The notes: generated by a model from the letters alone, not told the origin. A stretch of 64,000 nucleotides of DNA from Clostridium sp. CAG:568 (GCA_000434395.1 FR878803.1:13172-77171), one strand, 5' to 3'. Shown: positions 10,057 through 52,547, counted from the stretch's first letter. A program made the numbers and translations.

Positions 10057-11529
10057 CTATTTTATCCTCAAGACATATTCCGGAATTTGATAATGTCCGT
10101 TCATCGTCTTATCATCTATTTTCTCCATAGTGAAGAATGTCGTATTGAATTCAGCTCTTACCAAAGCGAGAATCAATAGAATTAAATCATTATCTTCAAC
10201 TAATGAAATCTCACTAGTTTTTATTTCTTTTCTCGAACCGAATGCCCTTCTCATAAACGACTCTACAGCTGCTTCAGAGAATTGACTTACTTCATTGTTC
10301 AAGAAATCATTCATCAAATCGTCGCTTTCATCAGAAATATCAGGAGAAAGTTCCATGGGATCCGGCTCTTCTCTTTGTGTTCTCTTGAAAGGCATGAACA
10401 AAGATCTATCATCAAATATGGAAGCTCTATGATAATCTACAGTATCGACCATCTTAAATAACAATGGGGAATTTTCCTCATTGATGTTAGGATTCTTCTG
10501 CAATTCGCTAGCCATAGAAGAAATTATCTTTTCTAACTTTCCTTTGATAGACTTATCGCTACCCGATAGGTAATTAACCTTCTTTTGAACAGCCTCAGTG
10601 TAATCGGCATTGGCCTTGTCGATTTCATCAAAAGATTTATTCAATCTATTGAATACATCGATTACTTTATTCAAATAAGAAATGACTAAATCTGTAGCTT
10701 TAGAAACTGAAAGAGAAGAAAAAGTAGAATCCATTCTAGCTTGAGAAGCTAGTTTTGCAACGATTCTCCCATCCCTAAGCCACTTATTCAATATTTCGAC
10801 AGTAGGTCTAGAATAAAGACCTAAAGAATCATAAGTCTTCATAGGATGGTAAATAGAATCTCCTACTTCAAATTTATAATCATCAAAATGCTGTTTCAAT
10901 ACTTCGTTAGGATTGAATACATTAGTCAACTTATGATTAAAAACGATGATCGAGTGATGCAAAAGTGTAACTGATAATTCCAATTCATCAGTATTCTTTA
11001 CTGCATTAGCCAAGGATCTAAACATATAGTCATCTTCTTTTTCATCTTCAAGTTTCAATTCAGAATACGTTTGATGAACCAAAGGCATATAAGATGAAAC
11101 ATCGCTAGTCAATTCATCCAACAATTCGAGCATCTTGATAGAGTAGGACGGAAGATAGATATAATCGACACCAGTCTTATAATCCTTGTCTATTTGAAAC
11201 CAACCACAACGAGATAATTTTCTAACTACGTAAGAGAATTTATCGGCAGATAAAGTGTCTTTAACATCGACTTCTTCTTCGACTTCTCTATCATCGTCCT
11301 TATCAGTATCGATAGAAAACAAAGACATGATATCTTGTCCATTTTCTCTCAACGCATCCATATAAGAACTACGAGTGATGGAAGAACGATAAATCTTTAA
11401 GCAATGATACAAGGTGACTAAAGCATAAGCATAAACTGCTTTATACTTTCGGGATAAAGGTGCAAAAAATCCATCCGGAAGACGGTCGAAAAGACGTGCA
11501 TTGTTATTTTCGGTCATTAATTTATCCAA
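10057..11529 (-). CDS. MukF/MksF/JetA-like kleisin subunit
   Basis: 490 aa, first gene of the three-gene set. Acidic linker segments (DKDDDREVEEEVD, PDISDESDD) between predicted helical domains, as in MukF-like kleisins. The annotated start is a TTG 7-8 nt after a GGGGGA RBS; an internal ATG lies 4 codons downstream. Confidence 0.5.
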   Translation of the reverse strand: MDKLMTENNNARLFDRLPDGFFAPLSRKYKAVYAYALVTLYHCLKIYRSSITRSSYMDALRENGQDIMSLFSIDTDKDDDREVEEEVDVKDTLSADKFSYVVRKLSRCGWFQIDKDYKTGVDYIYLPSYSIKMLELLDELTSDVSSYMPLVHQTYSELKLEDEKEDDYMFRSLANAVKNTDELELSVTLLHHSIIVFNHKLTNVFNPNEVLKQHFDDYKFEVGDSIYHPMKTYDSLGLYSRPTVEILNKWLRDGRIVAKLASQARMDSTFSSLSVSKATDLVISYLNKVIDVFNRLNKSFDEIDKANADYTEAVQKKVNYLSGSDKSIKGKLEKIISSMASELQKNPNINEENSPLLFKMVDTVDYHRASIFDDRSLFMPFKRTQREEPDPMELSPDISDESDDLMNDFLNNEVSQFSEAAVESFMRRAFGSRKEIKTSEISLVEDNDLILLILALVRAEFNTTFFTMEKIDDKTMNGHYQIPEYVLRIK

Positions 11530-11717
11530 ACTAGTATCCCCCTTTGTAAATTAAATGAAATCTACGACAAAAAACAAGTCATAGTTTCGGGATATTCCAT
11601 ACTTTATTATTATACTTTCTTATAGACCAAAATAATAAAGAAAAACAAGAGGTTTCTATACAAAGAGAAATATAAATCTCTTTATAGTTTCAACTATTCA
11701 AAACAAAGCATTCTACT

Positions 11718-14684
11718 TTATTCTTTTTTGACTTTGTTTTTTCTTCTTCTAGCCAAATACTTGATCAATTCCCATATTCCTACGCAGATCAAAAATATTG
11801 CAATAGTAGTCATATATCCACCAAAATCAATTCCAACATCTCTCCATTGAGCTGATCTATTTGGCGTATAAAATTGAGTCAATTCACTAAAACCCGCAAC
11901 ACAGAATCCAAGAACAGAAGATATTCCTAAGCCGATGAGCATCGTCTTAATCTTATTAGTGGCAAGGAATATAAATACGACTGAGAGGAAGGCAAAAACT
12001 GCAAACAACAAATAATGACCGACCAGTTTTCTTAGCTTCTTAGCCAAGGAAGAGAACATCACACTTATATCTCTATCGATAGTCAAATCGATATAAACTG
12101 AATATTTCACCAAAGTATCGTCACTTCCCAAAGTGACTTTGAGTGTTGTTTTTCCAATATCCAACAAAGAAATGTTTCCAAATTTATCAACACTGACAAT
12201 ATTATTTGTCTTATTTCCACTTGAATCCATACATTCAAAGCTCAAGTTTTTACATGACACTTTTTCTTTGGTAGTTATCCCTATCTTATAGTTCTTTCCA
12301 TAGAACAATTTAGCTTCATATCTCTTTCCATCATCGATAGAATTGAATGTTTCAGCCTTAAATACTTTACTATTTATAGTAAAAGGTGAGACAGTATCGA
12401 CTACTTGAATTTGTTTAGTCTTTTTCAAAGAAGGATTCGATATAGGCGTTACTGTAATTGTAGATTTACCGATTTTCTTTGCTTTTCCAACCCCATTTTG
12501 ACTGATAGAAATAACTGAGGAATCAGATGAAGTAAAGCTCACATCTTTGATTGATGCATTATTATTCATACTGACATCGATATCAAATTCACTTCCCAAA
12601 GCAATCTTTGAAAAATCATCCAACCCCTTGTTATCGCCAGGATAATAACCAGCATTATATACGACATCAAAACTATCAATATCGATGAAATTTACATCGA
12701 TTGTAAAATCAAAGCTTAATAAATCGTTTTGACGAGAGGTTATTTTAAATGAAGTACTTCCTTTCTTATTTGCGAAAAATATTAATTTGTCATCGTTGCA
12801 TACAACATTGTCGTTATTTGATGAAATAGAATAGGTTCCGTCATCAAATAAAACCTCATCATTTTTAGTTCCATCTTTGAATTGCCGATTAAAAGCAAAT
12901 TCGACATTCAAAGCTTTATAATCGTGATAATCTACACTGATAGTCGAATGGTTAGATAGAAGATTGTGACCTTCATCATAAACTCTCATAGTATTAGGCT
13001 TGTCGACTATACTAAAAATCAAATCCTCAGATATAGAATTATCGAGTTTAGAAACAAATCTAAACTTAACGTTTCCAGTTTGATTATTGGTAGTGATGGA
13101 GTATTGATTGTTTGATTCGACCAATTTGACTAAATTTTCCCCTTCTCTAATTGAAACAATCCATCCAGAGTATTTAAAACTAACAGGTTCAATTGAAATA
13201 TTAGAAAAGACATTGTCATAAATTTGATTTACTAGCAATTCATTTTTATCTGATTCGTTGGAAGAAAAATAATTGCCCAAAGAAATTCCACTGACAGAAC
13301 CAGTTTGAAAGTCATTTTGATACTGATAAGTGAAAACTATAGCATTGGAAGTATCATCTTTATCGACATAAAACTTGATCTGACCACTGACATCAGAATC
13401 AGTATTAGCTTTAAAGGTAAAAGACTTATAAGAATGACTTAAACAAGTTAATCTTGTCGAATCATATTCAATTTTGTAATTATTCAGTAAATATGCTTTG
13501 GAATTTATGTTTTTATATGGGATGGAAATAGAAAAAGAGTCTATGGTAACTTTGCTGGAATAATGAGAATTGGTGTGAATCGATGGGGTATAAGATCTCT
13601 TCAATTTCGATGTGTCTATTTGATCAGAAGTCAATTTTGATTTTTCTTTGACATAGACATCAAAAGAATTAGTTTCAATCTTTGATTTATCTTTCTTCAA
13701 ATAAGACAGTTTCAAATCCTTAAACGAATTAGATTTATTCTCATCTTTAGATATGATTTTGATTTGATTACTTTTAATCGATTTAAAAAATATTCCATCC
13801 ACTGATGGAAAATGAATTTTGGTCGAATCAAAAGTAGCGTTCGCAGGTGAATATTCAATGCTGACCGATATAGAGTCACCCATACTATATAATTCATATT
13901 TTGAATTTACCGAAATAGATTCAACTTCAACCGTTTGAACAATTTTATCTTTAACATTAAAAGTTGTTGAATCTTCAAATTTGTTTATTTTAGCATAAAT
14001 TATAGCTGTTCCGGATTTCTTAAATTCGACTCTTCCATCAGAGTCAACACTACAAATAGTATCATCGCTAGAGCTAAAGGCAACTGTCGTGTAAGTGACA
14101 TTACTAGGCTCAATATGAGTTTTTAATGTATATGATTGTCCTACATAGAAAGTTTCTTTGCTAGATGGTTTATTAGTAATCACAATCGATGTTGCTAAAA
14201 CCGGATCAACAGCAATAGAGAATTTCTTTATTAGATTTGAATTTTTACTAGCTGTGAAAGTCAATTCTAAAGATGGGCTTTCCTTAATGAATGTAATTGA
14301 ATTATCAGCACCAATTGTAGCAAAGGAACTATCACAGTCAATATTGATTCCTTTAAAAGAAGTATCTTGAGGAATATAAGTAAAATTATAATAAATAGTA
14401 TCTCCGACATAAAAAGTTGAATTAGACAAATCTAAAATAATAGACTCATTTTTATCCTTATAAAAAGAAACACCGAAATCTTTTATCTCTTTTATTCTTT
14501 GACTATCATAATTGTCATTGATTTCATCCTCAAACAATCCGGTGAAATCATTACTTTGTTTAGCACTTTTACTCCCAGGCATCGCACTTTCTACAAATAT
14601 CAAAACAGCGCAAACAATGTATAAAAGTAAAAATAAATACTGAACAATGTTTTTGAAAACATTGTGTTTTTTCGCTGTTGTCAT
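11718..14684 (-). CDS. large surface protein: N-terminal signal anchor, multiple Big_2-type Ig-like domains, C-terminal VanZ-like polytopic membrane domain
   Basis: N-terminal TM segment YLFLLLYIVCAVLIFV. Big_2-like segments, e.g. VTYTTVAFSSSDDTICSVDSDGRVEFKKSGTAIIYAKIN and DVSFTSSDSSVISISQNGVGKAKKIGKSTITVTP. C-terminal 4-TM region containing GFSELTQFYTPNRSAQWRDVGIDFGG, which matches the VanZ-family DE.HQ.F.PGR....DV.ID..G motif. Confidence 0.55.
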   Translation of the reverse strand: MTTAKKHNVFKNIVQYLFLLLYIVCAVLIFVESAMPGSKSAKQSNDFTGLFEDEINDNYDSQRIKEIKDFGVSFYKDKNESIILDLSNSTFYVGDTIYYNFTYIPQDTSFKGINIDCDSSFATIGADNSITFIKESPSLELTFTASKNSNLIKKFSIAVDPVLATSIVITNKPSSKETFYVGQSYTLKTHIEPSNVTYTTVAFSSSDDTICSVDSDGRVEFKKSGTAIIYAKINKFEDSTTFNVKDKIVQTVEVESISVNSKYELYSMGDSISVSIEYSPANATFDSTKIHFPSVDGIFFKSIKSNQIKIISKDENKSNSFKDLKLSYLKKDKSKIETNSFDVYVKEKSKLTSDQIDTSKLKRSYTPSIHTNSHYSSKVTIDSFSISIPYKNINSKAYLLNNYKIEYDSTRLTCLSHSYKSFTFKANTDSDVSGQIKFYVDKDDTSNAIVFTYQYQNDFQTGSVSGISLGNYFSSNESDKNELLVNQIYDNVFSNISIEPVSFKYSGWIVSIREGENLVKLVESNNQYSITTNNQTGNVKFRFVSKLDNSISEDLIFSIVDKPNTMRVYDEGHNLLSNHSTISVDYHDYKALNVEFAFNRQFKDGTKNDEVLFDDGTYSISSNNDNVVCNDDKLIFFANKKGSTSFKITSRQNDLLSFDFTIDVNFIDIDSFDVVYNAGYYPGDNKGLDDFSKIALGSEFDIDVSMNNNASIKDVSFTSSDSSVISISQNGVGKAKKIGKSTITVTPISNPSLKKTKQIQVVDTVSPFTINSKVFKAETFNSIDDGKRYEAKLFYGKNYKIGITTKEKVSCKNLSFECMDSSGNKTNNIVSVDKFGNISLLDIGKTTLKVTLGSDDTLVKYSVYIDLTIDRDISVMFSSLAKKLRKLVGHYLLFAVFAFLSVVFIFLATNKIKTMLIGLGISSVLGFCVAGFSELTQFYTPNRSAQWRDVGIDFGGYMTTIAIFLICVGIWELIKYLARRRKNKVKKE

Positions 14685-41938: not shown

Positions 41939-43570
41939 ATGGAAGAAGAGAATATAGAAAATGTACTAGAATTACGACATATAACTAAGATTTTTCCAGG
42001 AATCAAGGCTAACGATGATATTTCTCTCACCCTCAGAAAAGGTGAAGTTCATGCTTTGCTAGGTGAAAACGGAGCTGGAAAATCTACTTTAATGTCTATG
42101 GTTTCCGGTCTTTATCAACCAGACGAAGGTGAGATACTTTTGAATGGTAAAAAAGTCAATATCAAAGATCCTCACCAAGCTTCCGACTTAGGAATAGGAA
42201 TGGTTCACCAACATTTTATGTTGGTCGGAGTGTTCACTGCTTTGGAAAATATAATCTTAGGTGTTGAACCTACAAATAAACTAGGATTTATTCAGCCTAA
42301 AGAAGCTAGACAAAAACTTGTAGATTTGTGCAACAAATTCAACTTTAATATCAACCTCGATGAAAAAGTTGACGATATGAGTGTTGGCGAACAACAAAAA
42401 GTTGAAATCTTAAAAATGTTGTTCAAAGATTCAAACATTCTGATTTTCGATGAGCCTACTGCTGTTTTGACTCCTCAAGAAATCGATGACTTAATGGTTT
42501 CCATTAGAAACTTAGCAAAGGAAGGAAAGTCAATACTATTCATCTCCCATAAGCTCGATGAAATCATGAAGGTCACTGACAGAGTTACCATCTTAAGAAA
42601 AGGAAAATGCATTGGAACACTCAACACTAAAGAGACAAACGCTAAGGAACTCTCTAGAATGATGGTCGGACGTGATGTCGAATTAGTGACCTCAAAAGAT
42701 GAATGCCATCCAGGTGCAGATGTCCTAACCATAAACAATTTGACTGTATTCAACCAAGAAAAAGAGAAAGAAACAGTAAAGCATGTCTCTTTCAATGTCA
42801 GAAGAGGTGAAATTGTATGTCTCGCAGGTATCGAAGGTAACGGTCAAACCGATTTAATTTACGCAATAACAGGTTTGTGCAGAGCTAAAGAAGGTGAAAT
42901 CGTCCTTCATAATGTCAAGAATCAAAAATACAGCGAAAAGAAAAAACTAGAAATAGAAAAGAAACATAAAGAATACACCGTCCCTGAATATGTCGATGTA
43001 CATTTGGAAAAACTTACTATTAGAAAACGTTCATTAGCCGGTCTTTCACATATCCCTGAGGATCGTCAGAAATATGGATTGGCTTTGGACTTCTCTTTGG
43101 CTGATAACATCGTTCTAAGAAAATACTTTGAAAGACCATATGAAATATTTGGCTTAAGAAATAAGAAAAAAATAAACGAATACGCTAATGAAATGATTAA
43201 AAAATATGATATTCGTTCAAGCTTAGGTCCACAATCTACAGTTAGGTCGATGTCTGGTGGAAACCAACAAAAAGCAATCATTGCAAGAGAGATGGATACA
43301 AATTGCCCCCTATTGATAGCTGTCTCTCCTACAAGAGGTTTGGATGTTGGAGCAATTGAAAATATTCATAAACAGTTAATTCAAAACAGAGACGAAGGAA
43401 AAGCCGTTCTTCTAGTATCGCTAGAACTCGATGAAGTAATGAATTTGTCAGATAGAATTCTAGTCATGCACGATGGTGAAATAGTTGCTGAATTGAATCC
43501 TAAGGAGACCACTGTACAAGAGATTGGTCTCTATATGTTAGGAACAAAGAAGCAAGAAAGGAGTGAATAA
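41939..43570 (+). CDS. ABC transporter ATP-binding protein with tandem ATPase domains (simple-sugar/nucleoside type)
   Basis: Two ABC domains: GENGAGKST ... SVGEQQKVEI ... ILIFDEPT, and GIEGNGQT ... SGGNQQKAIIAR ... LLIAVSPTRGLD. RBS AAGGAGAA. Confidence 0.8.
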   Translation: MEEENIENVLELRHITKIFPGIKANDDISLTLRKGEVHALLGENGAGKSTLMSMVSGLYQPDEGEILLNGKKVNIKDPHQASDLGIGMVHQHFMLVGVFTALENIILGVEPTNKLGFIQPKEARQKLVDLCNKFNFNINLDEKVDDMSVGEQQKVEILKMLFKDSNILIFDEPTAVLTPQEIDDLMVSIRNLAKEGKSILFISHKLDEIMKVTDRVTILRKGKCIGTLNTKETNAKELSRMMVGRDVELVTSKDECHPGADVLTINNLTVFNQEKEKETVKHVSFNVRRGEIVCLAGIEGNGQTDLIYAITGLCRAKEGEIVLHNVKNQKYSEKKKLEIEKKHKEYTVPEYVDVHLEKLTIRKRSLAGLSHIPEDRQKYGLALDFSLADNIVLRKYFERPYEIFGLRNKKKINEYANEMIKKYDIRSSLGPQSTVRSMSGGNQQKAIIAREMDTNCPLLIAVSPTRGLDVGAIENIHKQLIQNRDEGKAVLLVSLELDEVMNLSDRILVMHDGEIVAELNPKETTVQEIGLYMLGTKKQERSE

Positions 43571-44981
43571 CATGAAAGAAATATGGAATAAGATAACATC
43601 TGCTTTATCTAAGTTCTTCAAAGATGTTTATTCTAAAGTATTGACTCCTATCGGGCATTTCTTCCAGTTTATTTGGAACTGGTGCTACACAGTTGTATTC
43701 ACTCCTATCGGGCATTTCTTCCAATTTATTTGGAACTGGTGTTACACAGTTGTATTCACCCCCATCGGGCATTTCTTCAATAAAGGTTGGAACTGGTTTA
43801 CCAACACAAAAACTGGTGCAGCAGTAAGAAAATTCTTCTCTTGGTCATACTCGCATGAAGCTGTTAGAGCTACAACCTCAAGTATCATTTGTATTCTAAT
43901 AGGTCTTTTCATCGGTTTCATAGTAATGATGATTCGTGATCCTTCAAGTTGCTTTGAAGGCTTAGGAGTAATATTTGTATCCGGTGCAAAAAATCCAAGC
44001 AATTTTGCAAATGTCTTAGTAGAAATGACACCGATGATTTTGGCTGGTATCTCGATATCGTTTGCTTTTAAATTAGGCTTGTTCAATATTGGAGTAACAG
44101 GTCAATTGACAATGGGTGCTTTCCTTTCAATTTTGACTGGATTAGCTGGTGCAGATTGGTACTGGTGTTTATTGGTTGGAATGTTGGGAGGAGCTGCAGT
44201 TGGATCTATAAGTGGATTCTTAAAAGCAAAGTTCAACGTCAACGAAGTCTTATCTGGAATCATGCTCAACTGGATCGTCTACTATTTAACCGGTCTAATT
44301 GGATCAAATCTTCCTGAGACATGGATCGATAAGAACAATAACACAAAACTTACAATCATGCCTAAGACTGGAAGACTACCTTCATTGGCAGGCCCAGGAA
44401 TATTCGAAGATGTCACTTGGGGATTAATCATTGCAGCTGTCATCGCTATTATCATTTGGTTCATTCTTAGATATACAAGATTTGGATTCGAGCTCAAGCT
44501 TTGCGGCTCCAACAAATATGTAGCAAAATATGCTGGTATAAACCAAAATGGTAAGATTGTTCTTTCATTACTCATCAGCGGTGCAATAGCAGGAATTTGT
44601 GGATACATGGTATATGGTGCTGCCACACCTACACAATTCACTTACGGTGCCTTGGATGGAGTCATGATTAGCGATGGATTCAATGGAATTTCAATTGCGT
44701 TGATAGGTCAGACCAATCCTATTGGATGTATCTTCAGTTCGTTCTTCTTGTCCTATATCAACCAAGCTCAAACAAGAATCGTCAACGTCTCAGCTTCATA
44801 TAGTAAATACTATATGGAATTGGTCAAAGCAGTCATCGTCTACGGTGCAAGCTTAAGCTCATTCATCGGTTACTTGTTGAAGAGAAGAAATGAGCGTAAG
44901 AAAGATGATGTAGATCTAAAGTTTAGAAGTCTTTTCAAGAAAAAAGACGGTGAAGTCAATGCTGAAGGAAGGAGTAAATAG
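43563..44981 (+). CDS. ABC transporter permease (nucleoside/simple-sugar family) with a repeat-containing N-terminal extension
   Basis: Polytopic membrane protein. Its N-terminus contains an in-frame 57-nt tandem duplication (TPIGHFFQFIWNWCYTVVF, about 2.8 copies). Confidence 0.7.
   Translation: MNNMKEIWNKITSALSKFFKDVYSKVLTPIGHFFQFIWNWCYTVVFTPIGHFFQFIWNWCYTVVFTPIGHFFNKGWNWFTNTKTGAAVRKFFSWSYSHEAVRATTSSIICILIGLFIGFIVMMIRDPSSCFEGLGVIFVSGAKNPSNFANVLVEMTPMILAGISISFAFKLGLFNIGVTGQLTMGAFLSILTGLAGADWYWCLLVGMLGGAAVGSISGFLKAKFNVNEVLSGIMLNWIVYYLTGLIGSNLPETWIDKNNNTKLTIMPKTGRLPSLAGPGIFEDVTWGLIIAAVIAIIIWFILRYTRFGFELKLCGSNKYVAKYAGINQNGKIVLSLLISGAIAGICGYMVYGAATPTQFTYGALDGVMISDGFNGISIALIGQTNPIGCIFSSFFLSYINQAQTRIVNVSASYSKYYMELVKAVIVYGASLSSFIGYLLKRRNERKKDDVDLKFRSLFKKKDGEVNAEGRSK
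43644..43800 (+). repeat. in-frame 57-nt tandem repeat (2 full copies plus a diverged partial third) inside the permease gene
   Basis: The unit ACTCCTATCGGGCATTTCTTCCAGTTTATTTGGAACTGGTGCTACACAGTTGTATTC is repeated at 43644-43700 and 43701-43757 with 2 mismatches. A third, diverged copy follows. Confidence 0.8.
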
Positions 44982-44983
44982 AT

Positions 44984-46000
44984 ATGAATTTCTTAGTTGA
45001 TATAGCTCCACTTACTTATGGTTCAATTGTCTTCTTACTGATAGTATTTGGTGTTGGATTTACCTTAGGTTCATTCGGTGGATTATTCTCAGAATGCTCC
45101 GGTATCATCAATATCGCCTTGGATGGTGCAATGTTGATCGGTGCTTTCTCAGGAATTTCGTTCTGTAGAGGTATAGCTGGGGCGATGAATGGAAATCCTT
45201 TGATATCAAATTACTGGTTTGCTAATTTGATTTACATACTAGGTTTAATTGTATGTATACTCGTCTCTCTAGCATTTTCATTCTTGCTATCATTCGTGTC
45301 AATCAAATTCAAAGCAGATCAAACAATTGTCGGAACTGCCTTGAATAGCGTTGTAACAGCTATCGTTTTGATTGCTAATACAATTATCTTAAACAAGGAT
45401 AAGCCTGAAGTTGACGTCTCAATGTTTATGAGCGCAACAAACATTAAATCCGGAAATGAATTTATCGACGGCTGTTTCTCTAATATGAATTTAACTCTCG
45501 TGATTGGAATCATAATGATTGCTATTTTGGTTCTCACTATGAACAAAACTAAATTCGGCCTTAGATTGAGAGCATGCGGTGAAAACCCACAAGCTGCTGA
45601 TTCTGTCGGAATCAATGTCAATAGAATGCGTTACATCGGAACCGCTATAGGAACCGCTGCCGCCGGGGCTGGTGGATACATAATATTCTCTTGTTTGAAG
45701 TTAGGTGAATGGAGTTTAAATTCAGGTGTCTTCGGTTACGGATTCTTGGTCTTAGCAATAGAAATTCTAGGAAACTGGAAGGCTATAAATGTAACCATCT
45801 CTGCTTGGATTTTTGCAGCATTCTTCGCTTTTGCAAACTTCATGACAGTCGCCTTCAGTTCAGGAAATGCTTTCTATAACAGCAAAGCTTTCTACATGTT
45901 GCTTCCATATTTACTCACATTGTTATCATTGATCATCTTCTCAAAGAAAAGCCATGCTCCAAAGAGTGAAGGTATTCCATACGACAAATCGAGTAGATAA
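44984..46000 (+). CDS. ABC transporter permease (second permease of the BMP importer)
   Basis: 338-aa polytopic membrane protein. 3-nt gap after the first permease. Confidence 0.7.
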   Translation: MNFLVDIAPLTYGSIVFLLIVFGVGFTLGSFGGLFSECSGIINIALDGAMLIGAFSGISFCRGIAGAMNGNPLISNYWFANLIYILGLIVCILVSLAFSFLLSFVSIKFKADQTIVGTALNSVVTAIVLIANTIILNKDKPEVDVSMFMSATNIKSGNEFIDGCFSNMNLTLVIGIIMIAILVLTMNKTKFGLRLRACGENPQAADSVGINVNRMRYIGTAIGTAAAGAGGYIIFSCLKLGEWSLNSGVFGYGFLVLAIEILGNWKAINVTISAWIFAAFFAFANFMTVAFSSGNAFYNSKAFYMLLPYLLTLLSLIIFSKKSHAPKSEGIPYDKSSR

Positions 46001-46015
46001 TGATATAAAACTTAA

Positions 46016-46047
46016 AAGACTCCATCAAATGATGGAGTTTTTTTATT
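46016..46047 (+). terminator. rho-independent terminator ending the BMP ABC operon
   Basis: Stem GACTCCATC/GATGGAGT(C) with loop AAAT, followed by TTTTTTTATT. Confidence 0.75.
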
Positions 46048-46117
46048 CACTTCAAAGAAGTAATTGTGAATTCATTAATAGACAAAAGGTTAAATTTCGA
46101 AGTTAACCCCATTCATT

Positions 46118-46321
46118 TCAATCTTTGGATGTCTTTTCCTCCACTGACGATTCTTCATCAACAAGTTTTATAAGACCTTTTTCAAGAGCGACACTGGGAT
46201 GCTTAAATTTCTTTCCATTATAATCAACTACAATGTTTCCTTTGACATCGATGTCTATAATAGTACCTTCTCCTCTAGCCCCTTTAACTTTTTTCCCAAT
46301 CAATTCTTTTGTATCTGACAT
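46118..46321 (-). CDS. small hypothetical protein (67 aa)
   Basis: MSDTKELIGKKVKGARGEGTIIDIDVKGNIVVDYNGKKF.... Small beta-rich protein. RBS AGGAAAGGAG 6 nt upstream. Confidence 0.4.
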   Translation of the reverse strand: MSDTKELIGKKVKGARGEGTIIDIDVKGNIVVDYNGKKFKHPSVALEKGLIKLVDEESSVEEKTSKD

Positions 46322-46689
46322 TTTGACTTGCTCCTTTCCTAAATTTTATCGTACAAATCCTTAATTTTCAATTTATTTGATCATCAAGTTCAAGCTAGAT
46401 TCATTCAAATAGAAGTGCTAAAGAATCCTAACTTTTATAAAATATAGAAATTCAATTCAAGCTGTTATTGATCACTTACATAACAAATTGATTTAATATA
46501 TTATTCAAAAGAATACATGCAGTAAAACAAAGAAAGACATTTTTTATAAAGAATTTTAAATTGAACCATGCATATTTACTTTTTAATATTGTTAAATAAG
46601 ATCGACAAATAAAATAGCATTACTAATCCACTTAAATTTCCTTTTTAATACATATAATGATGATATTGATGGTAATGAATATCAATAAA

Positions 46690-46720
46690 TCAAAAAATCT
46701 CTTGGATTTTAACCAAGAGA
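46690..46720 (-). terminator. intrinsic terminator downstream of the XRE-family gene
   Basis: Stem TCTCTTGG/CCAAGAGA with a 7-nt loop, followed on the minus strand by UUUUUUGAUUUAUUG. Confidence 0.55.
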
Positions 46721-46825
46721 TGTGATTATCTATGGCAAGAATTACCTAAAATGATACAATTCCCGCACCCTTACTTATCTGCTGTGTTTTCTCTTATACC
46801 TTAATAATTGTAATCGTGTAAGGAG

Positions 46826-47437
46826 TTAATCATATTTATCAATAATATAACATTTATTCCAACCTTTTTTATGACAATATGGACACCTCAAATATCTCTT
46901 CTTCATAGTATGTGCGCCCATTAAATATTCCCTCATTGTTGGTACAAATTTCTCACCACAATGACAACATTCATATACCTCAGTGTTAACTGCAACCAAT
47001 AAAATCAAAGCAATATTTGATACCACTAACAAAACTGACATTACGCAAACTAGTATTTTTATCCATACTTCTTCAATTACAAATCCTGCTAATAATATTA
47101 ATCCTAATGTTATAAGAATTGTTACAATAGCTGAAATCGTGGAAATAGTATATTTAAGTTTCGGGCTTGTTTTATCCATTAATTTTAAAAGATTATTTTC
47201 GGCATTAATTCGATATTGTTTATCTTGTAATCTTTCTCCAGTCATTAATTCATTTGCATCAATTTCTAAACATTTACATAATGGTAAAATTAAACTAATA
47301 TTAGGGAAGCCAACACCTCGTTCCCATTTACTAATTGTCTTTTCAGATAGATTTAATTTTTCTGCTAACTCTCGTTGAGTTAATCCTTTTTCTTTACGAA
47401 TTAAAGCAATAAATTTTCCAGTTTTATTTAAATCCAT
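46826..47437 (-). CDS. XRE-family HTH regulator with TM segments and a C-terminal zinc ribbon
   Basis: HTH region LTQRELAEKLNLSEKTISKWERG, two hydrophobic helices, C-terminal CCHCGEK...CPYCHKKGW. Confidence 0.65.
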   Translation of the reverse strand: MDLNKTGKFIALIRKEKGLTQRELAEKLNLSEKTISKWERGVGFPNISLILPLCKCLEIDANELMTGERLQDKQYRINAENNLLKLMDKTSPKLKYTISTISAIVTILITLGLILLAGFVIEEVWIKILVCVMSVLLVVSNIALILLVAVNTEVYECCHCGEKFVPTMREYLMGAHTMKKRYLRCPYCHKKGWNKCYIIDKYD

Positions 47438-47984
47438 TTTTGCCTATCTACTTACAAGAATTGTTTACTATATAAAAACGATAAATCACACTCACGCTCC
47501 GTAGAGTTTTATAAATTCCACTTTTAATTTACTTACAATTATTTAGTCATGCTACTTCTTGATGCAATATATTGGCACGATTGATTTTTCTATTGTTTGT
47601 TTTAAATCGTTGCAAATTTTCAACGATTCTAAAAGGATTATTTATTTATATATGCTGTTACTTTAGCATTGCCCTTTTTTTCAACTATTTTTTCAATTTA
47701 AGCATTTAATATTCTAATCAATGTATCTTTAGTAAAACCACTTATTTTTTCTAATTCATTTCTACTATATGAATATTTTTGTTTCATAACATCCTAAACC
47801 TTTTTTTCATTATTTGATAAGTTACTTTGTTCAATAATTGGCAATGTAACTGATATTCCCTTAATTACTTAACGCCTAAACAATTTAAGGAGCTAGTTTT
47901 CCCCTTAAATTAAGAAAAATGTCTACTTTCTACTGATTAGTCCAAAAATACCACCAGCAAAGGCAGTCCTAAATAAATATTATT

Positions 47985-49034
47985 CTATTTTTTATAAATA
48001 TACCTAGTATTGCGAGAAGTCCCTATTTTTTCAACAACTCCGCTTTTTACAAGCTTTCCTAAGACACTCTCAATAGTAGTAACACTTACATCTGGTAATA
48101 CTTTATATATATCCGCTTTAGATAATGGTGTGATGCTGTTTTTCAATGTTTCTTCAATACGATTTGTCTTAGATAGTTTTTTACCATTGACAACACTAAA
48201 TCTCATATCTAGTTCTCTATAGCAACGAAGAAGCATAAATATAAAGTTCTCTACAAAAGCAAAATAATCATTTTCGTTAAGGTCCCATCCCTTTGATGAA
48301 ATTCTTAGTGCCTCATAGTAAAGATCTTTATATTTATTGATTTGTTCCTCGTATGAAATATATTTAACAACGTCATATCCTTCTTTATATAAAAGCAACA
48401 AAGATAAAAGTCTACTCATTCTACCATTTCCATCTGAGAAAGGATGTATACATAAGAAATCTAAAATGACGCATGGAATAAGCAATAACGGATTTATACC
48501 ATAATCTTGTTTCGCTGATAAATAGGCAAAATAAAGCTGTTCCATTGCTTTTGGTGTTTCTGATGCTGGTGTTGGACAAAAACGAACACTTCTATTACCA
48601 TTCGCATCAATCTCTAATATAACATTGTCAGTATCTTTGTATTTTCCACCATACTGATAGTTTGTATATGAAAGCAACATTGAGTGAAGTGACAATATAG
48701 TATTCTCTGAAAAATCTAATGTTTTATAATTCATGTGTATTAGATTGAGCGCATCTCTATAACCTGCAATCTCAGCTTCATCATGATTTAAAGGCGCACT
48801 GTTTTTATTTACGATTTCTTGTATTCTACTATCGCTAGTTATGATGCCTTCAATAGCATTTGAGCTTTTAACTGATTGTACCTTAGCAATCTTCTCTAAT
48901 TCATTAAATGCATCAGTATAGATTCTTTGCCTATCCAATGCTTTATTTTTCAATTCACCAATAGACAATGATAACGTGATAAATTTAGATGGTATGTTAG
49001 TATTTTTTAAAAAAGAATAATCAAACTTATGCAT
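47985..49034 (-). CDS. Fic/Doc family protein (class II Fic with N-terminal inhibitory motif and C-terminal winged HTH)
   Basis: Fic motif HPFSDGNGRMSRLL. Inhibitory (S/T)xxxE(G/N) motif SNAIEG upstream. AGGAGG RBS 7 nt before the ATG. Confidence 0.8.
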   Translation of the reverse strand: MHKFDYSFLKNTNIPSKFITLSLSIGELKNKALDRQRIYTDAFNELEKIAKVQSVKSSNAIEGIITSDSRIQEIVNKNSAPLNHDEAEIAGYRDALNLIHMNYKTLDFSENTILSLHSMLLSYTNYQYGGKYKDTDNVILEIDANGNRSVRFCPTPASETPKAMEQLYFAYLSAKQDYGINPLLLIPCVILDFLCIHPFSDGNGRMSRLLSLLLLYKEGYDVVKYISYEEQINKYKDLYYEALRISSKGWDLNENDYFAFVENFIFMLLRCYRELDMRFSVVNGKKLSKTNRIEETLKNSITPLSKADIYKVLPDVSVTTIESVLGKLVKSGVVEKIGTSRNTRYIYKK

Positions 49035-49065
49035 ATATTCCTCCTAATGTGCATATATTTTGGCA

Positions 49066-49114
49066 AATAATATGCAGATATTCAAGCACTTTGTGGGTTA
49101 ATCTGCATATTATT
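49066..49114. promoter_or_regulatory. operator-like perfect 14-bp inverted repeat in the fic promoter region
   Basis: AATAATATGCAGAT (49066-49079) and ATCTGCATATTATT (49101-49114), separated by 21 bp. Further ATATGCA(T) half-site copies at about 49028, 49050, 49124 and 49144. Confidence 0.45.
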
Positions 49115-49447
49115 TATATTTTTATATGCATTAAAACTATTCAATATGCAAAAAGAGTCAACTCAACGATTCTATTGAACAATTAATCAGGGCTTCTCAA
49201 AAAAATAATCAATCATATAAATTTAAATTTCATAAAACAAAAAAGTCATCAGGTTTTAGTCTCTAAAAAGACTTGATCTGATGAATATAGTGGCAAAATC
49301 GCAAAAAAGAGGTTAAACCACTTATTTTGATGTGAACCCCATTTCCTGTTCGATGACTCGAGTCCAAGATTTGGGGTTAACGTCATTTAAACTTATTTTA
49401 ACAAGAAAAAAGGCTAATACCGAAGTATTAACCGCATTTACTGAATA

Positions 49448-49524
49448 TGGTGCCGACAAGTGGATTCGAACCACCAACCCTTCGCTTACGAAGCGACTGC
49501 TCTACCCTTAAGAGCTATGCCGGC
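49448..49524 (-). tRNA. tRNA-Thr (anticodon CGU)
   Basis: 77 nt cloverleaf: acceptor GCCGGCA/TGTCGGC, D-stem GCTC/GAGC, anticodon loop TTCGTAA, T-loop TTCGAAT, encoded CCA. Confidence 0.8.
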
Positions 49525-49642
49525 ACAACTTTGATATTTTAAAACAATTATCGCTTAAAAACAACATCTCTATATTTACTAAAAGAAAGAGATGATCCAT
49601 ATTAATTAATGTTAAAGATTTTTATTGAGGTTTAATTATCTA

Positions 49643-49846
49643 TTATTTTCTTACAAACCATTTGTTGGTCCAAACACTACGCTCTAGCTCAATAGAATTG
49701 TTACAGCTAGGACAAACTACATAACCACTATCACTAACATAAGTCTCTCCAAAGAACGGTTTTATATCTGTTTGAGTAATAGCCAATTTAGCACCACAAG
49801 TAACACATGTGATCTTAATTTCTTTTCCTTCCTTTAACACTTTCAT
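49643..49846 (-). CDS. small zinc-ribbon protein (67 aa)
   Basis: Two CxxC pairs (CVTCG ... CPSCN). Confidence 0.4.
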   Translation of the reverse strand: MKVLKEGKEIKITCVTCGAKLAITQTDIKPFFGETYVSDSGYVVCPSCNNSIELERSVWTNKWFVRK

Positions 49847-50029
49847 AAATAATGTACTCCTATCTAAAAGAAATTTTATTAATTCAAGCGCTTAAAAAGT
49901 GCTAAATCATTTATTTAATAAATACTTCCTAAATATCCGCTTAGTTAAGTATAATAATTTTAAATAACTTTTAAAATTTAATATTTAAAATTAAAATTGT
50001 CAATTTTTAATTAATACGAATTAATATAA

Positions 50030-50064
50030 AGAAATTAAAAATCACTCCATTGAAGGAGTGATTT
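50030..50064 (-). terminator. intrinsic terminator after the large lipoprotein gene
   Basis: Stem TCACTCC/GGAGTGA with loop ATTGAA, followed on the minus strand by UUUUUAAUUUCUUU. Confidence 0.6.
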
Positions 50065-50080
50065 AAATTTACATAAGCTG

Positions 50081-52438
50081 TTACTTAATCCAAATATTTT
50101 GAATCGAAGTTATCAATGAATCATAGATTGAAGCGATATTCTCAGGAAGCTCATTATCGCCACCGAACAAGCTTGTTGAAGAATGCCAATTTTGATATGT
50201 CTCTTCTACATTAGACTTTGCATTATTTATCTTGGTAATAACTACTAAAGCTTCTTCTTTGCTAGTCACTTTTTGGGCTTCAGGTTTCAAAGCAGCGACA
50301 TCTTCTTTAGCCTTAGCTTCCATCAATCCATCGTACTTATCTACATTATCCGAGATGAGCTTAGCCTTAAAAGCATCATAATCAGAATCTTTTACATTAC
50401 CGCTTTCATCGATAGCAAAGACATTCTTGCTCAATTGCATAGCTTTGCTCATAGTTGAACTAACAACTGCTAGGTCATCATAAGAAGTTATAGATCCAGC
50501 CAATTCAGTAATCTTATTTCTAAGCTTGGTGTTGACTTCCAAAGCTTTGGCTATAGAAGTATCGATTGAAGTTTTATTGTCACCATAGAACATAGAATAT
50601 TGAGGATAGGTATGGCAACCATTGAATATCTTGCAATCTTTATCAATAATCTTTCCAATCTTATCAAAGGAATCATATAAGGATTCTTCCTTGGTGTCTT
50701 CTACTATGACATTTATATACTCATCATACAATGAGGCATACTTAGTCATCAAAGCATCTAACTTTGCCTTCTCAGCTTCAGTATAGCTAGATTCATAATT
50801 CTTGAAATAAGACAGTGTAACAGCATTGAATCCGTCTTCCCCAAATACCTCAGTACCGTCAGCTAACTTACCAGCGATTGTCAATCCATCCACATTTGTT
50901 TGATCAAATGAATCTGCATATGTCTTTGATTTATTAAACAATTTAATTCCTTCATCATATGCCAATCCGACATATACTTTACTGCTACTAGTTTCAGCAG
51001 CAGGCTTTACAAAGTCATAAGTTTCAGGATTGAACAATCCTTTAGTATATGTATCCAAAGCTTCGACTTCAGCTCCGACCTTGGCAATCTTTTCTCCATA
51101 AGCAGAAGTTAATTCGATGTTTTCACCCTTAGATTTAATGATGTCTTCTGCATCGACACCATAACTTGAATCGACGCTGAAATCATAATATTCATCAACT
51201 TTATTCTTCAAAGCTTTGTATTTTTGATATGAAGCCTGAGCATTCAAAGCTCCTTCATCCATCTCGTCTAAAGCATCAGCTTTTAAGTCCTTAGTAGTAG
51301 GATCTAATTTCAAGGCTAAGTCGATACCGACAGGAAGCAATCCTAAAGCAGTGACCCCAACAGTGACATCAAAACCGGTAAATGTAGAAATATCGGCATT
51401 AGCAACTTTTGTGAATTCCAAAGAGAGGGAGACATTGCTGAGTGTTGCCATTCCGCCAGTCAAATCGTTCATATAAACATTGGCATCAGTGATTCCAGTA
51501 TCATTCAATCCCAAGGTGATGATCGTCTTATGATTTCCAGTAATTTCATCATCTTCGCCTTCGATAGAACCTTCAAGTCCAGTAGCTAAAACACTCAATG
51601 CTTTTGCTATAGCGTTGTCCTCAAGATTGAATGAAGGAAGCAAAGCTTCCAAGATGGACATATCAAATCCCTTATTGAGCATTCCATCTTCTCCAAAAGC
51701 AATATCGACAAATGCTTTGAGTGTATCAGCCAAATTTGAAGTATCAGGAATTTCAGGTAATGTCAACTCTGTTTCGGCATATTCTCTCAAAGTTTTCTCA
51801 TCATTTTTCAATGCTCCAGTTTCATCTTTAGGAGTGACTTCGGCATAATAATAGACATTTTGTCCATCCTTATAGTCGATATTCATCTGACCATATGAAT
51901 TGGATTCATCGAATCTATCGTTATAGAAGTTAGCAGCATTCATCTGCAAATCAGAGATATAAGGAATAGAAGATAAATCGATTCCCACAATTCCCATAGA
52001 TGAAACGAGCTGTAAAAGGCTGAACACTGAATTCAAAGCGTGGAGAGGAGAGGCTGAAGCATCTGTTCCATCCTTTTCTTTGTGGATAGCAGTAGCATTT
52101 TTAACTACTATTTGTGCATCAGCATTCTCGCCACTTCCAAACTTCCCATTGACAGTACGATAAGACAAATCGAAAGGAGCTGCCAAATCTATCATCTTGC
52201 TGCCCATTAAATCAACACTGGCATACAAAGCACCTTCTTGTCCTTTTACACCAATGACATCCTCTTCCTTAGATGAAGAAGTATTACCAGTCTTTCCTGT
52301 ATCTGTGGAAGGAGTTGGGGTTGAAGGTGTGCTAGGACTAGTAGAAATACTAGAAGTACTAGAAGAAGCTTCGCCTCCACAGCTTATTAGCATTGTAGAC
52401 ATGACTAACAACAATCCAATTGAATATCTTTTTTTCAT
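50081..52438 (-). CDS. large lipoprotein (about 785 aa) with a Ser/Thr/Pro-rich linker
   Basis: I prefer the start at MKKRYSIGLLLVMSTMLISCGG (lipobox LISC) with a GAGGT RBS 8 nt upstream. The ORF-track N-terminal extension has no RBS. Confidence 0.6.
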   Translation of the reverse strand: MKKRYSIGLLLVMSTMLISCGGEASSSTSSISTSPSTPSTPTPSTDTGKTGNTSSSKEEDVIGVKGQEGALYASVDLMGSKMIDLAAPFDLSYRTVNGKFGSGENADAQIVVKNATAIHKEKDGTDASASPLHALNSVFSLLQLVSSMGIVGIDLSSIPYISDLQMNAANFYNDRFDESNSYGQMNIDYKDGQNVYYYAEVTPKDETGALKNDEKTLREYAETELTLPEIPDTSNLADTLKAFVDIAFGEDGMLNKGFDMSILEALLPSFNLEDNAIAKALSVLATGLEGSIEGEDDEITGNHKTIITLGLNDTGITDANVYMNDLTGGMATLSNVSLSLEFTKVANADISTFTGFDVTVGVTALGLLPVGIDLALKLDPTTKDLKADALDEMDEGALNAQASYQKYKALKNKVDEYYDFSVDSSYGVDAEDIIKSKGENIELTSAYGEKIAKVGAEVEALDTYTKGLFNPETYDFVKPAAETSSSKVYVGLAYDEGIKLFNKSKTYADSFDQTNVDGLTIAGKLADGTEVFGEDGFNAVTLSYFKNYESSYTEAEKAKLDALMTKYASLYDEYINVIVEDTKEESLYDSFDKIGKIIDKDCKIFNGCHTYPQYSMFYGDNKTSIDTSIAKALEVNTKLRNKITELAGSITSYDDLAVVSSTMSKAMQLSKNVFAIDESGNVKDSDYDAFKAKLISDNVDKYDGLMEAKAKEDVAALKPEAQKVTSKEEALVVITKINNAKSNVEETYQNWHSSTSLFGGDNELPENIASIYDSLITSIQNIWIK

Positions 52439-52547
52439 TATATTTACCTCATTAAATGAACTTGTCTCTTTTGAAGACAAGTCCATTCTAAACTCATTTG
52501 AAAGATTAAAAAAATAAAAAATCAATTAATAATTAAACTACTTAATA

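Follow-up and report, generated by a model that had tools for sequence, protein, structure and literature searches.

A strain-variable 2.7-kb block at the 3' end of tRNA-Thr(CGU) in Clostridium sp. CAG:568, probably an accessory insertion, carries a gene for a SoFic/CccR-type Fic protein

Positions 46118-49846 of the 64,000-nucleotide stretch of Clostridium sp. CAG:568 DNA analysed here (called here the window) hold a gene for a Fic protein, a gene for a helix-turn-helix (HTH) regulator with transmembrane (TM) segments and a zinc ribbon, a 29-codon open reading frame (ORF), two ORFs of 67 amino acids (aa) and a tRNA-Thr(CGU) gene. A preliminary description had interpreted this region as an accessory block of about 3.7 kb, the decayed remains of an integrated element. 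The five consecutive proteins from the permease of the neighbouring ATP-binding cassette (ABC) operon through the second 67-aa ORF are identical to CDA37853-CDA37857 of this human-gut species, and the Fic protein is indexed in 875 blocks of a metagenome collection, where all contigs with a named source come from the human gut. About 40 conspecific contigs, obtained from exact-protein look-ups and from a metagenome scan using the species-specific 3' half of the tRNA, were compared and are designated type A (the arrangement of the window, found in most strains), type B (empty) or type C (the allele of contig L035, with other cargo and the HTH gene). The features of the locus are the following.

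46118-46321, minus strand: 67-aa ORF of the core flank, GC 34.8%, present in empty-allele strains (L028); synonymous diversity (piS) 0.037, ratio of nonsynonymous to synonymous diversity (piN/piS) 0.36
46697-46721, minus strand: intrinsic terminator just outside the block, directly after the tRNA in the empty allele and after the HTH gene in the occupied allele
46736-49446, minus strand: accessory block of 2,711 bp with the Fic gene, the 29-codon ORF and the HTH-TM-zinc-ribbon gene, GC 29.0%
46826-47437, minus strand: gene for a 203-aa XRE-type HTH protein with two predicted TM segments and a C4 zinc ribbon; HTH_3 (PF01381), E 1.7e-12
47681-49445, minus strand: tRNA-proximal sub-block (Fic cassette and 29-codon ORF), swapped for unrelated DNA in type C
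47698-47787, minus strand: 29-codon ORF of uncertain status, 197 nt 3' of the Fic gene
47950-47967, minus strand: terminator-like hairpin after the Fic stop codon, from terminator prediction
47985-49034, minus strand: gene for a class II Fic protein of 349 aa; PF02661, E 5e-14
49050-49150, minus strand: predicted Fic promoter and operator array, from sequence reading and comparison with relatives
49234-49284, minus strand: second terminator-like hairpin with a T-run, between the tRNA terminator and the Fic promoter
49412-49433, minus strand: intrinsic terminator for the tRNA in the occupied allele, inside the block
49448-49524, minus strand: tRNA-Thr(CGU), CCA encoded (ARAGORN; Rfam 55.6 bits), whose 3' end is the proximal boundary of every allele
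49643-49846, minus strand: 67-aa C4 zinc-ribbon ORF of the core flank, on the 5' side of the tRNA and present in all alleles; piS 0.058, piN/piS 0.14

The region is AT-rich, as first described (29.2% GC over 46118-49846 compared to 33.6% for the whole window), and contains non-coding gaps of 504, 547 and 413 bp, the last of which, with its operator array, had been missed. Both 67-aa ORFs of the preliminary description exist, but the second lies 5' of the tRNA and not between the ABC operon and the tRNA. An Rfam scan of 45500-50500 gave the tRNA as its sole match.

Comparison of the conspecific contigs showed that 46736-49446 is precisely missing in four of them (L028, L034, L039 and L041, type B), which align to the window until 46735 and restart at 49447, the two aligned segments overlapping by 4 nt. 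In the orientation of the tRNA, GGCACCAT is joined directly to CGATAATCAC in the empty site, followed by the terminator at 46721-46697, and the junction is identical in all four empty alleles. In the occupied site, GGCACCAT is followed at the boundary by ATTCAG and, after 2.7 kb ending in CTTGCCAT, by AGATAATCAC, the distal junction continuing AGATAA. The block thus begins at the first base past the CCA end of tRNA-Thr(CGU) and brings with it a terminator for the tRNA (49433-49412). Only 4 bp (CCAT) are shared between the junctions, and these are polymorphic among occupied strains, several of which carry CTAT. Since both 67-aa ORFs are present in the empty-site strains, they belong to the flanks and not to the cargo, and purifying selection acts on both; the accessory part of the region does abut the tRNA 3' end, as proposed earlier, but it extends over 2.7 kb and not 3.7 kb.

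A second class of alleles carries different DNA at the same position. Contig L035 (type C) matches the window until 49446 and again from 47680 downward, with 2,592 nt of unrelated DNA between, so that it keeps the HTH gene (99.7% identical) without the Fic gene. This cargo comprises genes for a 233-aa protein and a 180-aa membrane protein, which face the tRNA, together with a broken GIY-YIG gene (6699-7474 of L035), which is split into three frames, gives a partial PADLOC PD-T4-3 match (E 4e-9) and, judged from its reading frames, is a remnant rather than an intact PD-T4-3 defence nuclease. The two-gene module (L035 5149-6426, minus strand of that locus), transcribed towards the tRNA, is also found in L036. 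Neither the 233-aa nor the 180-aa protein has a Pfam, NCBIfam or PADLOC match, and the pair, located beside the PD-T4-3-like remnant, may be an undescribed defence or toxin pair. L036 is itself a mosaic that tracks L035 for 1,892 nt, then holds 37 nt identical to window 49256-49220 (the 3' part of the second terminator-like hairpin region, flanked there by unrelated DNA) and then continues into other DNA. The different cargo of L035 and L036 starts at the same tRNA end as in type A. Over the first ~55 nt after the tRNA, corresponding to the trailer and terminator, types A and C are homologous to each other (z 3.8), and type B is unrelated to them. In a further contig, L003, an IS1595-family transposase is inserted between the Fic gene and the 29-codon ORF (11267-12268, corresponding to about 47802-47812 of the window). 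As the Fic half of the block is replaced by unrelated cargo in other strains, the tRNA-Thr flank forms a small hot spot at which several alleles occur, in no fewer than four states: empty, Fic with HTH, other cargo with HTH, and a further mosaic. The check for presence or absence that the preliminary description had called for thus shows, across strains, that part of the region is accessory; the hot spot itself had not been recognised. The locus provides a case, resolved to the base pair, of a very common uncultured gut bacterium varying its accessory and defence content at a tRNA flank.

The block also differs from its surroundings in diversity and composition. Among the same 20 type A strains, piS amounted to 0.0094 for the Fic gene and 0.0088 for the HTH gene, 4-6 times below the values of 0.037-0.058 obtained for five genes of the flanks (ABC ATPase, permease, FtsX-ABC gene and the two 67-aa ORFs). 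Likewise, occupied strains diverge from the window by 3.4% outside the block but by 0.4% once it is entered at ~46750. The GC content at third codon positions (GC3) is 22.6% for Fic (z -2.2) and 16.2% for HTH (z -4.1) against a core value of 29.6 +/- 3.2% (38-39 long ORFs), so that the compositional deviation anticipated by the preliminary description is found in the two genes of the block; the 67-aa ORFs have a core-like GC content and a GC3 (z -1.4) within the core range. A later insertion is supported jointly by the low diversity and deviant composition of the block, by its boundary exactly at the tRNA end and by the second cargo that starts at the same base, and we favour a block that was inserted later and spread by recombination, insertion rather than deletion being inferred. 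We put at about 0.7 the probability that 46736-49446 is a 2.7-kb accessory insertion at the tRNA CCA end, within a multi-allele hot spot, carrying a self-regulated Fic protein of the SoFic/CccR/CbFic2 type and a passenger regulator. Of the earlier view, the strain-variable block at a tRNA end is thereby retained, and a decayed integrated element is one possible history for it.

In the opposite scenario, the block would be ancestral core DNA, the empty allele would result from a microhomology-mediated deletion (CCAT/CCAT) and nothing would ever have been inserted at the tRNA. Such a history would fit the 4-bp microhomology at the junction together with the lack of both att repeats and an integrase, the greater frequency of the occupied allele (13 of 18 metagenome loci) and the occurrence of empty alleles in more than one place of the flank tree. 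Nevertheless, we consider it unlikely, as a deletion would have to end exactly at the last base after the tRNA, the four empty alleles share one junction, a second and unrelated cargo starts at the identical position, piS within the block is several-fold lower than in the flanks of the same strains, and GC3 is deviant in the Fic and HTH genes but not in the flanking small ORFs.

Several observations nevertheless weigh against the insertion that we favour. The 4-bp microhomology is equally expected from a spontaneous deletion. A neighbour-joining tree of 3 kb of flank is star-like with the empty alleles interspersed, a scatter that fits recombination and also repeated loss; because the population recombines, this tree is unable to polarise the event. 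Downstream of the permease, its nearest relatives (68-71% identity) show no synteny with the window, so that they are likewise unable to polarise the indel, and scans of a genome collection with permease peptides and with the tRNA 3' half gave no match and hence no outgroup. The source species seems to be absent from the genome collection that was scanned, and the tRNA sequence is species-specific. Finally, no integrase, attachment (att) repeat or near-identical donor element was found. The attL/attR repeats expected from the preliminary description failed to appear: no repeat of the tRNA 3' end was detected in the islet, either in the repeat listing or when the final 35 nt of the tRNA were locally aligned with the islet, where the best alignment was no better than shuffles (0.54), and the polymorphic CCAT is all that is shared. 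That no integrase is left was, by contrast, rightly noted, as no integrase or recombinase ORF is present and the stop-to-stop fragments of the three gaps have no Pfam match that would indicate a recombinase remnant. Searches of phage and plasmid collections with the block DNA returned only two short matches, to Fic or HTH coding sequence, and no near-identical donor element.

Compared to tRNA-linked islands and defence hot spots, the islet is alike in its location at a tRNA 3' end, its variability among strains, its alternative cargo, its deviant composition and its defence-type genes. It differs in its very small size (2.7 kb) and in lacking an integrase, an excisionase and a tRNA 3'-end repeat other than 4 polymorphic bp. 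Of the features by which tRNA-integrated islands are recognised, the location at the tRNA 3' end and the presence or absence among strains are thus found here, and a recombinase and an attR repeat are not.

The Fic protein carries both of the motifs previously pointed out. The catalytic motif HxFx(D/E)GNGRxxR is present as HPFSDGNGRMSR (residues 197-208), with H197, F199, D201, G202, N203, G204, R205 and R208 invariant among 20 homologues. The inhibitory motif (S/T)xxxE(G/N) is present as SNAIEG (residues 58-63), 134 residues ahead of the catalytic His, and its six residues are invariant in the same number of homologues. Class II is defined in the Fic classification reportedly established by Engel et al. 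in 2012, and by both defining motifs in its sequence the window Fic is a class II protein. The PADLOC SoFic model PDLC03963 matches it with an E value of 8.2e-36, residues 17-348 aligning to positions 28-352 of the 361 of the model (90%), whereas the next-best family reaches only 1e-14. This affiliation with the SoFic anti-phage type had escaped the earlier reading. The nearest solved structure is PDB 8uqu_A (E 5e-70, or 2e-77 with a profile), which aligns over residues 25-347 and therefore includes the C-terminal domain; SoFic, FICD and other PDB structures match the Fic core only. This chain, named 'Fido domain-containing protein' (8UQU chain A), is from another organism, and no function or publication was found for it. 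Marginal similarity was obtained with 7xux_A (E 1e-4) and 8cil_A (E 4e-6), the sole candidates for CccR and CbFic2 among the PDB matches, which we assume to be these two proteins.

On the other side, three results speak for a more distant relationship or a less certain structure. The NCBIfam SoFic equivalog NF046030 scores 41 bits against a curated cut-off of 550, so that the protein is not an equivalog, the PDB match to SoFic has an E value of only about 1e-4 over 100 residues of the Fic core, as for a distant relative, and the AlphaFold model is poor overall (predicted local distance difference test, pLDDT, 56). Within this model, residues 290-349 reach a pLDDT of 71-90 with the order helix-helix-helix-strand-strand. 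Because the model as a whole is poor, the predicted C-terminal winged helix rests on the full-length 8uqu_A match and on these better-modelled last 60 residues.

Purifying selection acts on the Fic gene (piN/piS 0.13), and none of its 24 full-length copies is broken. Its orthologues (66-80% identity) are solitary genes with unrelated neighbours in six contexts, which indicates a stand-alone gene, and DNA similarity to them is limited to the ORF and about 50-100 nt upstream. Fic relatives are common on viral or prophage contigs (144 confirmed matches). In another species, two contigs, L133 (Fic at 1071-2120) and L134 (967-2016), encode the identical Fic protein P0010, and their downstream contexts diverge 127 nt past the stop codon. 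Contigs carrying P0010 are mostly only 2-5 kb long, a hint of a variable or repeated neighbourhood.

The 413-nt leader region of the Fic gene folds unusually well (z -5.7). The predicted promoter consists of a -35 box TTGAAT (49085-49080) and a -10 box CAAAAT (49062-49057), with the ribosome-binding site AGGAGG (49047-49042) just downstream of 49050-49150. Five TGCATAT/ATATGCA half-sites are located upstream of the start codon, at -116, -96, -76, -42 and -22, and a perfect 15-bp inverted repeat is formed by 49067-49081 and 49102-49116. In the 25 upstream regions of close Fic orthologues, the TGCATAT motif occurs 33 times against 0.84 expected. Among 60 distinct upstream regions, taken from Fic relatives with identities as low as 38%, a strong inverted repeat, typically bracketing the -10 box, was present in 68%, compared to 1.8% of shuffles, and the sequence of the half-site differed by Fic protein subfamily. 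Such a conserved operator design is what autorepression by Fic's own DNA-binding domain predicts, and from these upstream sequences we infer that the Fic protein probably represses its own gene through the candidate operator palindromes. The comparison of operators yields candidate binding sites that can be tested, in a family for which the mapping of DNA recognition has so far been coarse. Between the tRNA terminator and the Fic promoter (minus strand, 49285-49411 and 49234-49284) there is in addition a stretch of ~125 nt with two hairpins, closed by the second terminator-like hairpin and its T-run, which could be a small transcript or a relic of an earlier cassette end.

SoFic has been described as a single-gene anti-phage system (Millman et al. 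2022, bioRxiv 10.1101/2022.05.11.491447). The E. coli protein, Sofic, is toxic and confers protection from phage; it depends on dimerisation and on its C-terminal domain, and a protein of 47 aa encoded downstream, AS1, counteracts it (PMC12249575). In S. oneidensis, SoFic AMPylates EF-Tu and blocks translation, and it binds to the 100 bp that immediately precede its start codon (bioRxiv 10.64898/2026.07.09.737422). The window Fic resembles SoFic (EcSofic; S. oneidensis SoFic, PDB 3EQX/3ZCN) in its N-terminal (S/T)xxxE(G/N) helix and its full HxFx(D/E)GNGRxxR motif, probably also in a winged-helix-type C-terminal domain, in being a stand-alone gene that matches the PADLOC model over its full length, and in having a palindrome-rich region within 100 bp of the start codon, where SoFic binds. 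It differs in being distant in sequence from the S. oneidensis protein and in belonging to a low-GC Gram-positive gut bacterium. Unlike the Sofic-AS1 pair, it has no recognisable AS1-like antitoxin, only the unconserved 29-codon ORF 197 nt downstream behind a terminator, the AS1 sequence not having been compared.

A second group of proteins offers a parallel. CccR of Yersinia pseudotuberculosis (PMC9755527) and CbFic2 of Coxiella burnetii (PMC10628234) combine a FIC domain with a C-terminal DNA-binding winged helix, the architecture predicted for the window Fic. Palindromes in the promoter of CccR mediate its repression by CccR itself (PMC9755527, as summarised in PMC10628234), and the window gene likewise has an inverted repeat bracketing the -10 box and further half-sites. 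CccR is reported to be an effector of the type VI secretion system with FtsZ as its target, and CbFic2 to target histone H3, whereas the window Fic has no secretion context.

By analogy with SoFic, CccR and CbFic2, the N-terminal inhibitory helix with Glu62 would keep the window Fic in check, and the protein would repress its own promoter, with the C-terminal winged-helix domain sitting on the TGCATAT palindromes that bracket the -10 box. Release, for example by phage infection, would then lead to AMPylation of an essential host protein, a growth stop and abortive infection. We thus propose that the window Fic may be an AMP-transferase that represses its own gene, inhibits its own activity and, once triggered, brings the cell to arrest, its anti-phage role and its target being drawn from these analogies.

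A different function can be envisaged, in which Fic would be a housekeeping translational and transcriptional regulator, combining reversible AMPylation and deAMPylation of EF-Tu with the activity of a transcription factor, and would have no anti-phage role. It would be in line with SoFic being an efficient deAMPylase that binds its own promoter (bioRxiv 10.64898/2026.07.09.737422), with the regulation of further genes by CccR (PMC9755527), and with the presence of the Fic gene, under purifying selection, in most strains. We find this function improbable here, given that Fic is dispensable, as the empty and type C strains exist, and that it lies in a variable hot spot whose alternative cargo includes the remnant of another defence gene; the scoring of the family as SoFic in PADLOC and the frequency of relatives on viral or prophage contigs argue in the same direction. 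With the proposed self-repressed AMP-transferase, the SoFic/CccR class of self-regulated Fic toxins gains a member from a Gram-positive gut bacterium. A Fic of the SoFic/CccR type, a membrane regulator of the XRE type and a hot spot at a tRNA flank are all parts of kinds already known, and current understanding is left unchanged.

The location of Fic relatives with respect to tRNA genes was also compared. In three of six contexts, Fic orthologues with 74% identity or more come immediately after a co-oriented tRNA, namely Thr(CGU) here, Ala(CGC) in L011 and Leu(UAA) in L012 and L013, with a gap of 127 nt in L011 and of 172 nt in L012 and L013. The chance expectation for such an adjacency is roughly 1-2% (our rough estimate, not computed). 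In these contigs (L011 7798-8001, L012 6877-7137 and L013 3625-3885) the Fic gene (74-78% identity) follows the tRNA, then a terminator and then the same operator design; in L012 and L013 the tRNA ahead of Fic is the last of a Val-Tyr-Gln-Lys-Leu cluster. Local alignment of the tRNA 3' end with the DNA downstream of Fic in L011 and L012 remained at chance level, and no tRNA adjacency was found in L133/L134, L137 or L014. Adjacency to a tRNA as a general property of the Fic family was rejected, as it was seen in 0 of 80 more distant relatives on viral contigs and in none of the contexts of P0010 or P0004. It is conceivable, although quite doubtful, that this Fic clade travels as a minimal cassette without a recombinase that was repeatedly set directly after the CCA end of different tRNA genes, in favour of which speak the three tRNA-adjacent contexts and the tRNA trailer and terminator that come with each allele; the adjacency may instead reflect a general gathering of accessory genes at tRNA flanks. 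Were the travelling cassette real, it would imply an undescribed targeting of tRNA ends or a tRNA-anchored exchange, such as homology-facilitated illegitimate recombination or the action of a trans-acting recombinase.

The second gene of the block corresponds to the XRE-type regulator of the preliminary description, with the HTH_3 domain at residues 10-64 of the 203-aa protein, two hydrophobic segments and a CxxC...CxxC tail. Sixteen homologues define a family of ~200 aa with an invariant HTH region, two membrane segments and the invariant cysteines C157, C160, C185 and C188. These homologues are found in unrelated chromosomal contexts, linked to neither Fic nor tRNA genes. Three independent frameshifts interrupt the gene, affecting 4 of the 21 distinct contigs, and its piN/piS amounts to 0.36. 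Being unlinked to Fic elsewhere, decaying, and kept in type C without Fic, the gene qualifies as a passenger rather than a partner of Fic. We regard it, from its predicted domains, as a probable XRE regulator tethered to the membrane, unrelated to Fic, which came in together with the Fic gene and is now in decay.

That the two genes would form one module, in which a membrane sensor/regulator controls the Fic toxin, is suggested by their adjacency and common orientation, by their joint gain or loss in the polymorphism between empty and occupied alleles and by their equal piS. By contrast, Fic is solitary in its six other contexts and intact where the HTH gene is frameshifted, HTH homologues lie beside unrelated genes, type C keeps the HTH gene alone, a terminator and 547 bp separate the two genes, and Fic has its own operator array; such a module is therefore highly improbable, and the pair was rejected as a single system on the evidence of context and decay.

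The 29-codon ORF exists as described, but the label HTH-like is without Pfam support even at E <= 1, and tblastn against phages gave only E 5. No conserved small ORF was found downstream of the Fic orthologues elsewhere. The position of the ORF is AS1-like, although behind a terminator-like hairpin, and the selection signal is weak, with no clear constraint. Its stop codon coincides with the boundary where type A and type C alleles turn homologous.

Further features were noted at and around the locus. The protein of the 67-aa zinc-ribbon ORF falls into a 90% protein cluster that also holds 234-aa L-ribulose-5-phosphate 4-epimerases, which looks like an artefact of clustering and not homology. 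Indels also cluster in a second small hot spot, the spacer that separates the first 67-aa ORF from the terminator of the ABC operon (46054-46112): several strains lack 57 bp there, an insertion of ~270 bp is present in L004, L008 and L026, and an IS3-type insertion with HTH_28 and rve genes lies in L030 beside the ORF. In the first ABC permease (43563-44981), an N-terminal tandem repeat of a 19-aa unit, TPIGHFFQFIWNWCYTVVF, is found, and the gene lengths of 351, 450, 469 and 472 aa among strains suggest copy-number variation or start shifts. The lipoprotein gene next to the tRNA locus (50081-52525), where flank divergence is 3-4%, gives called products of 662 to 811 aa among strains, with many indels and some split genes.

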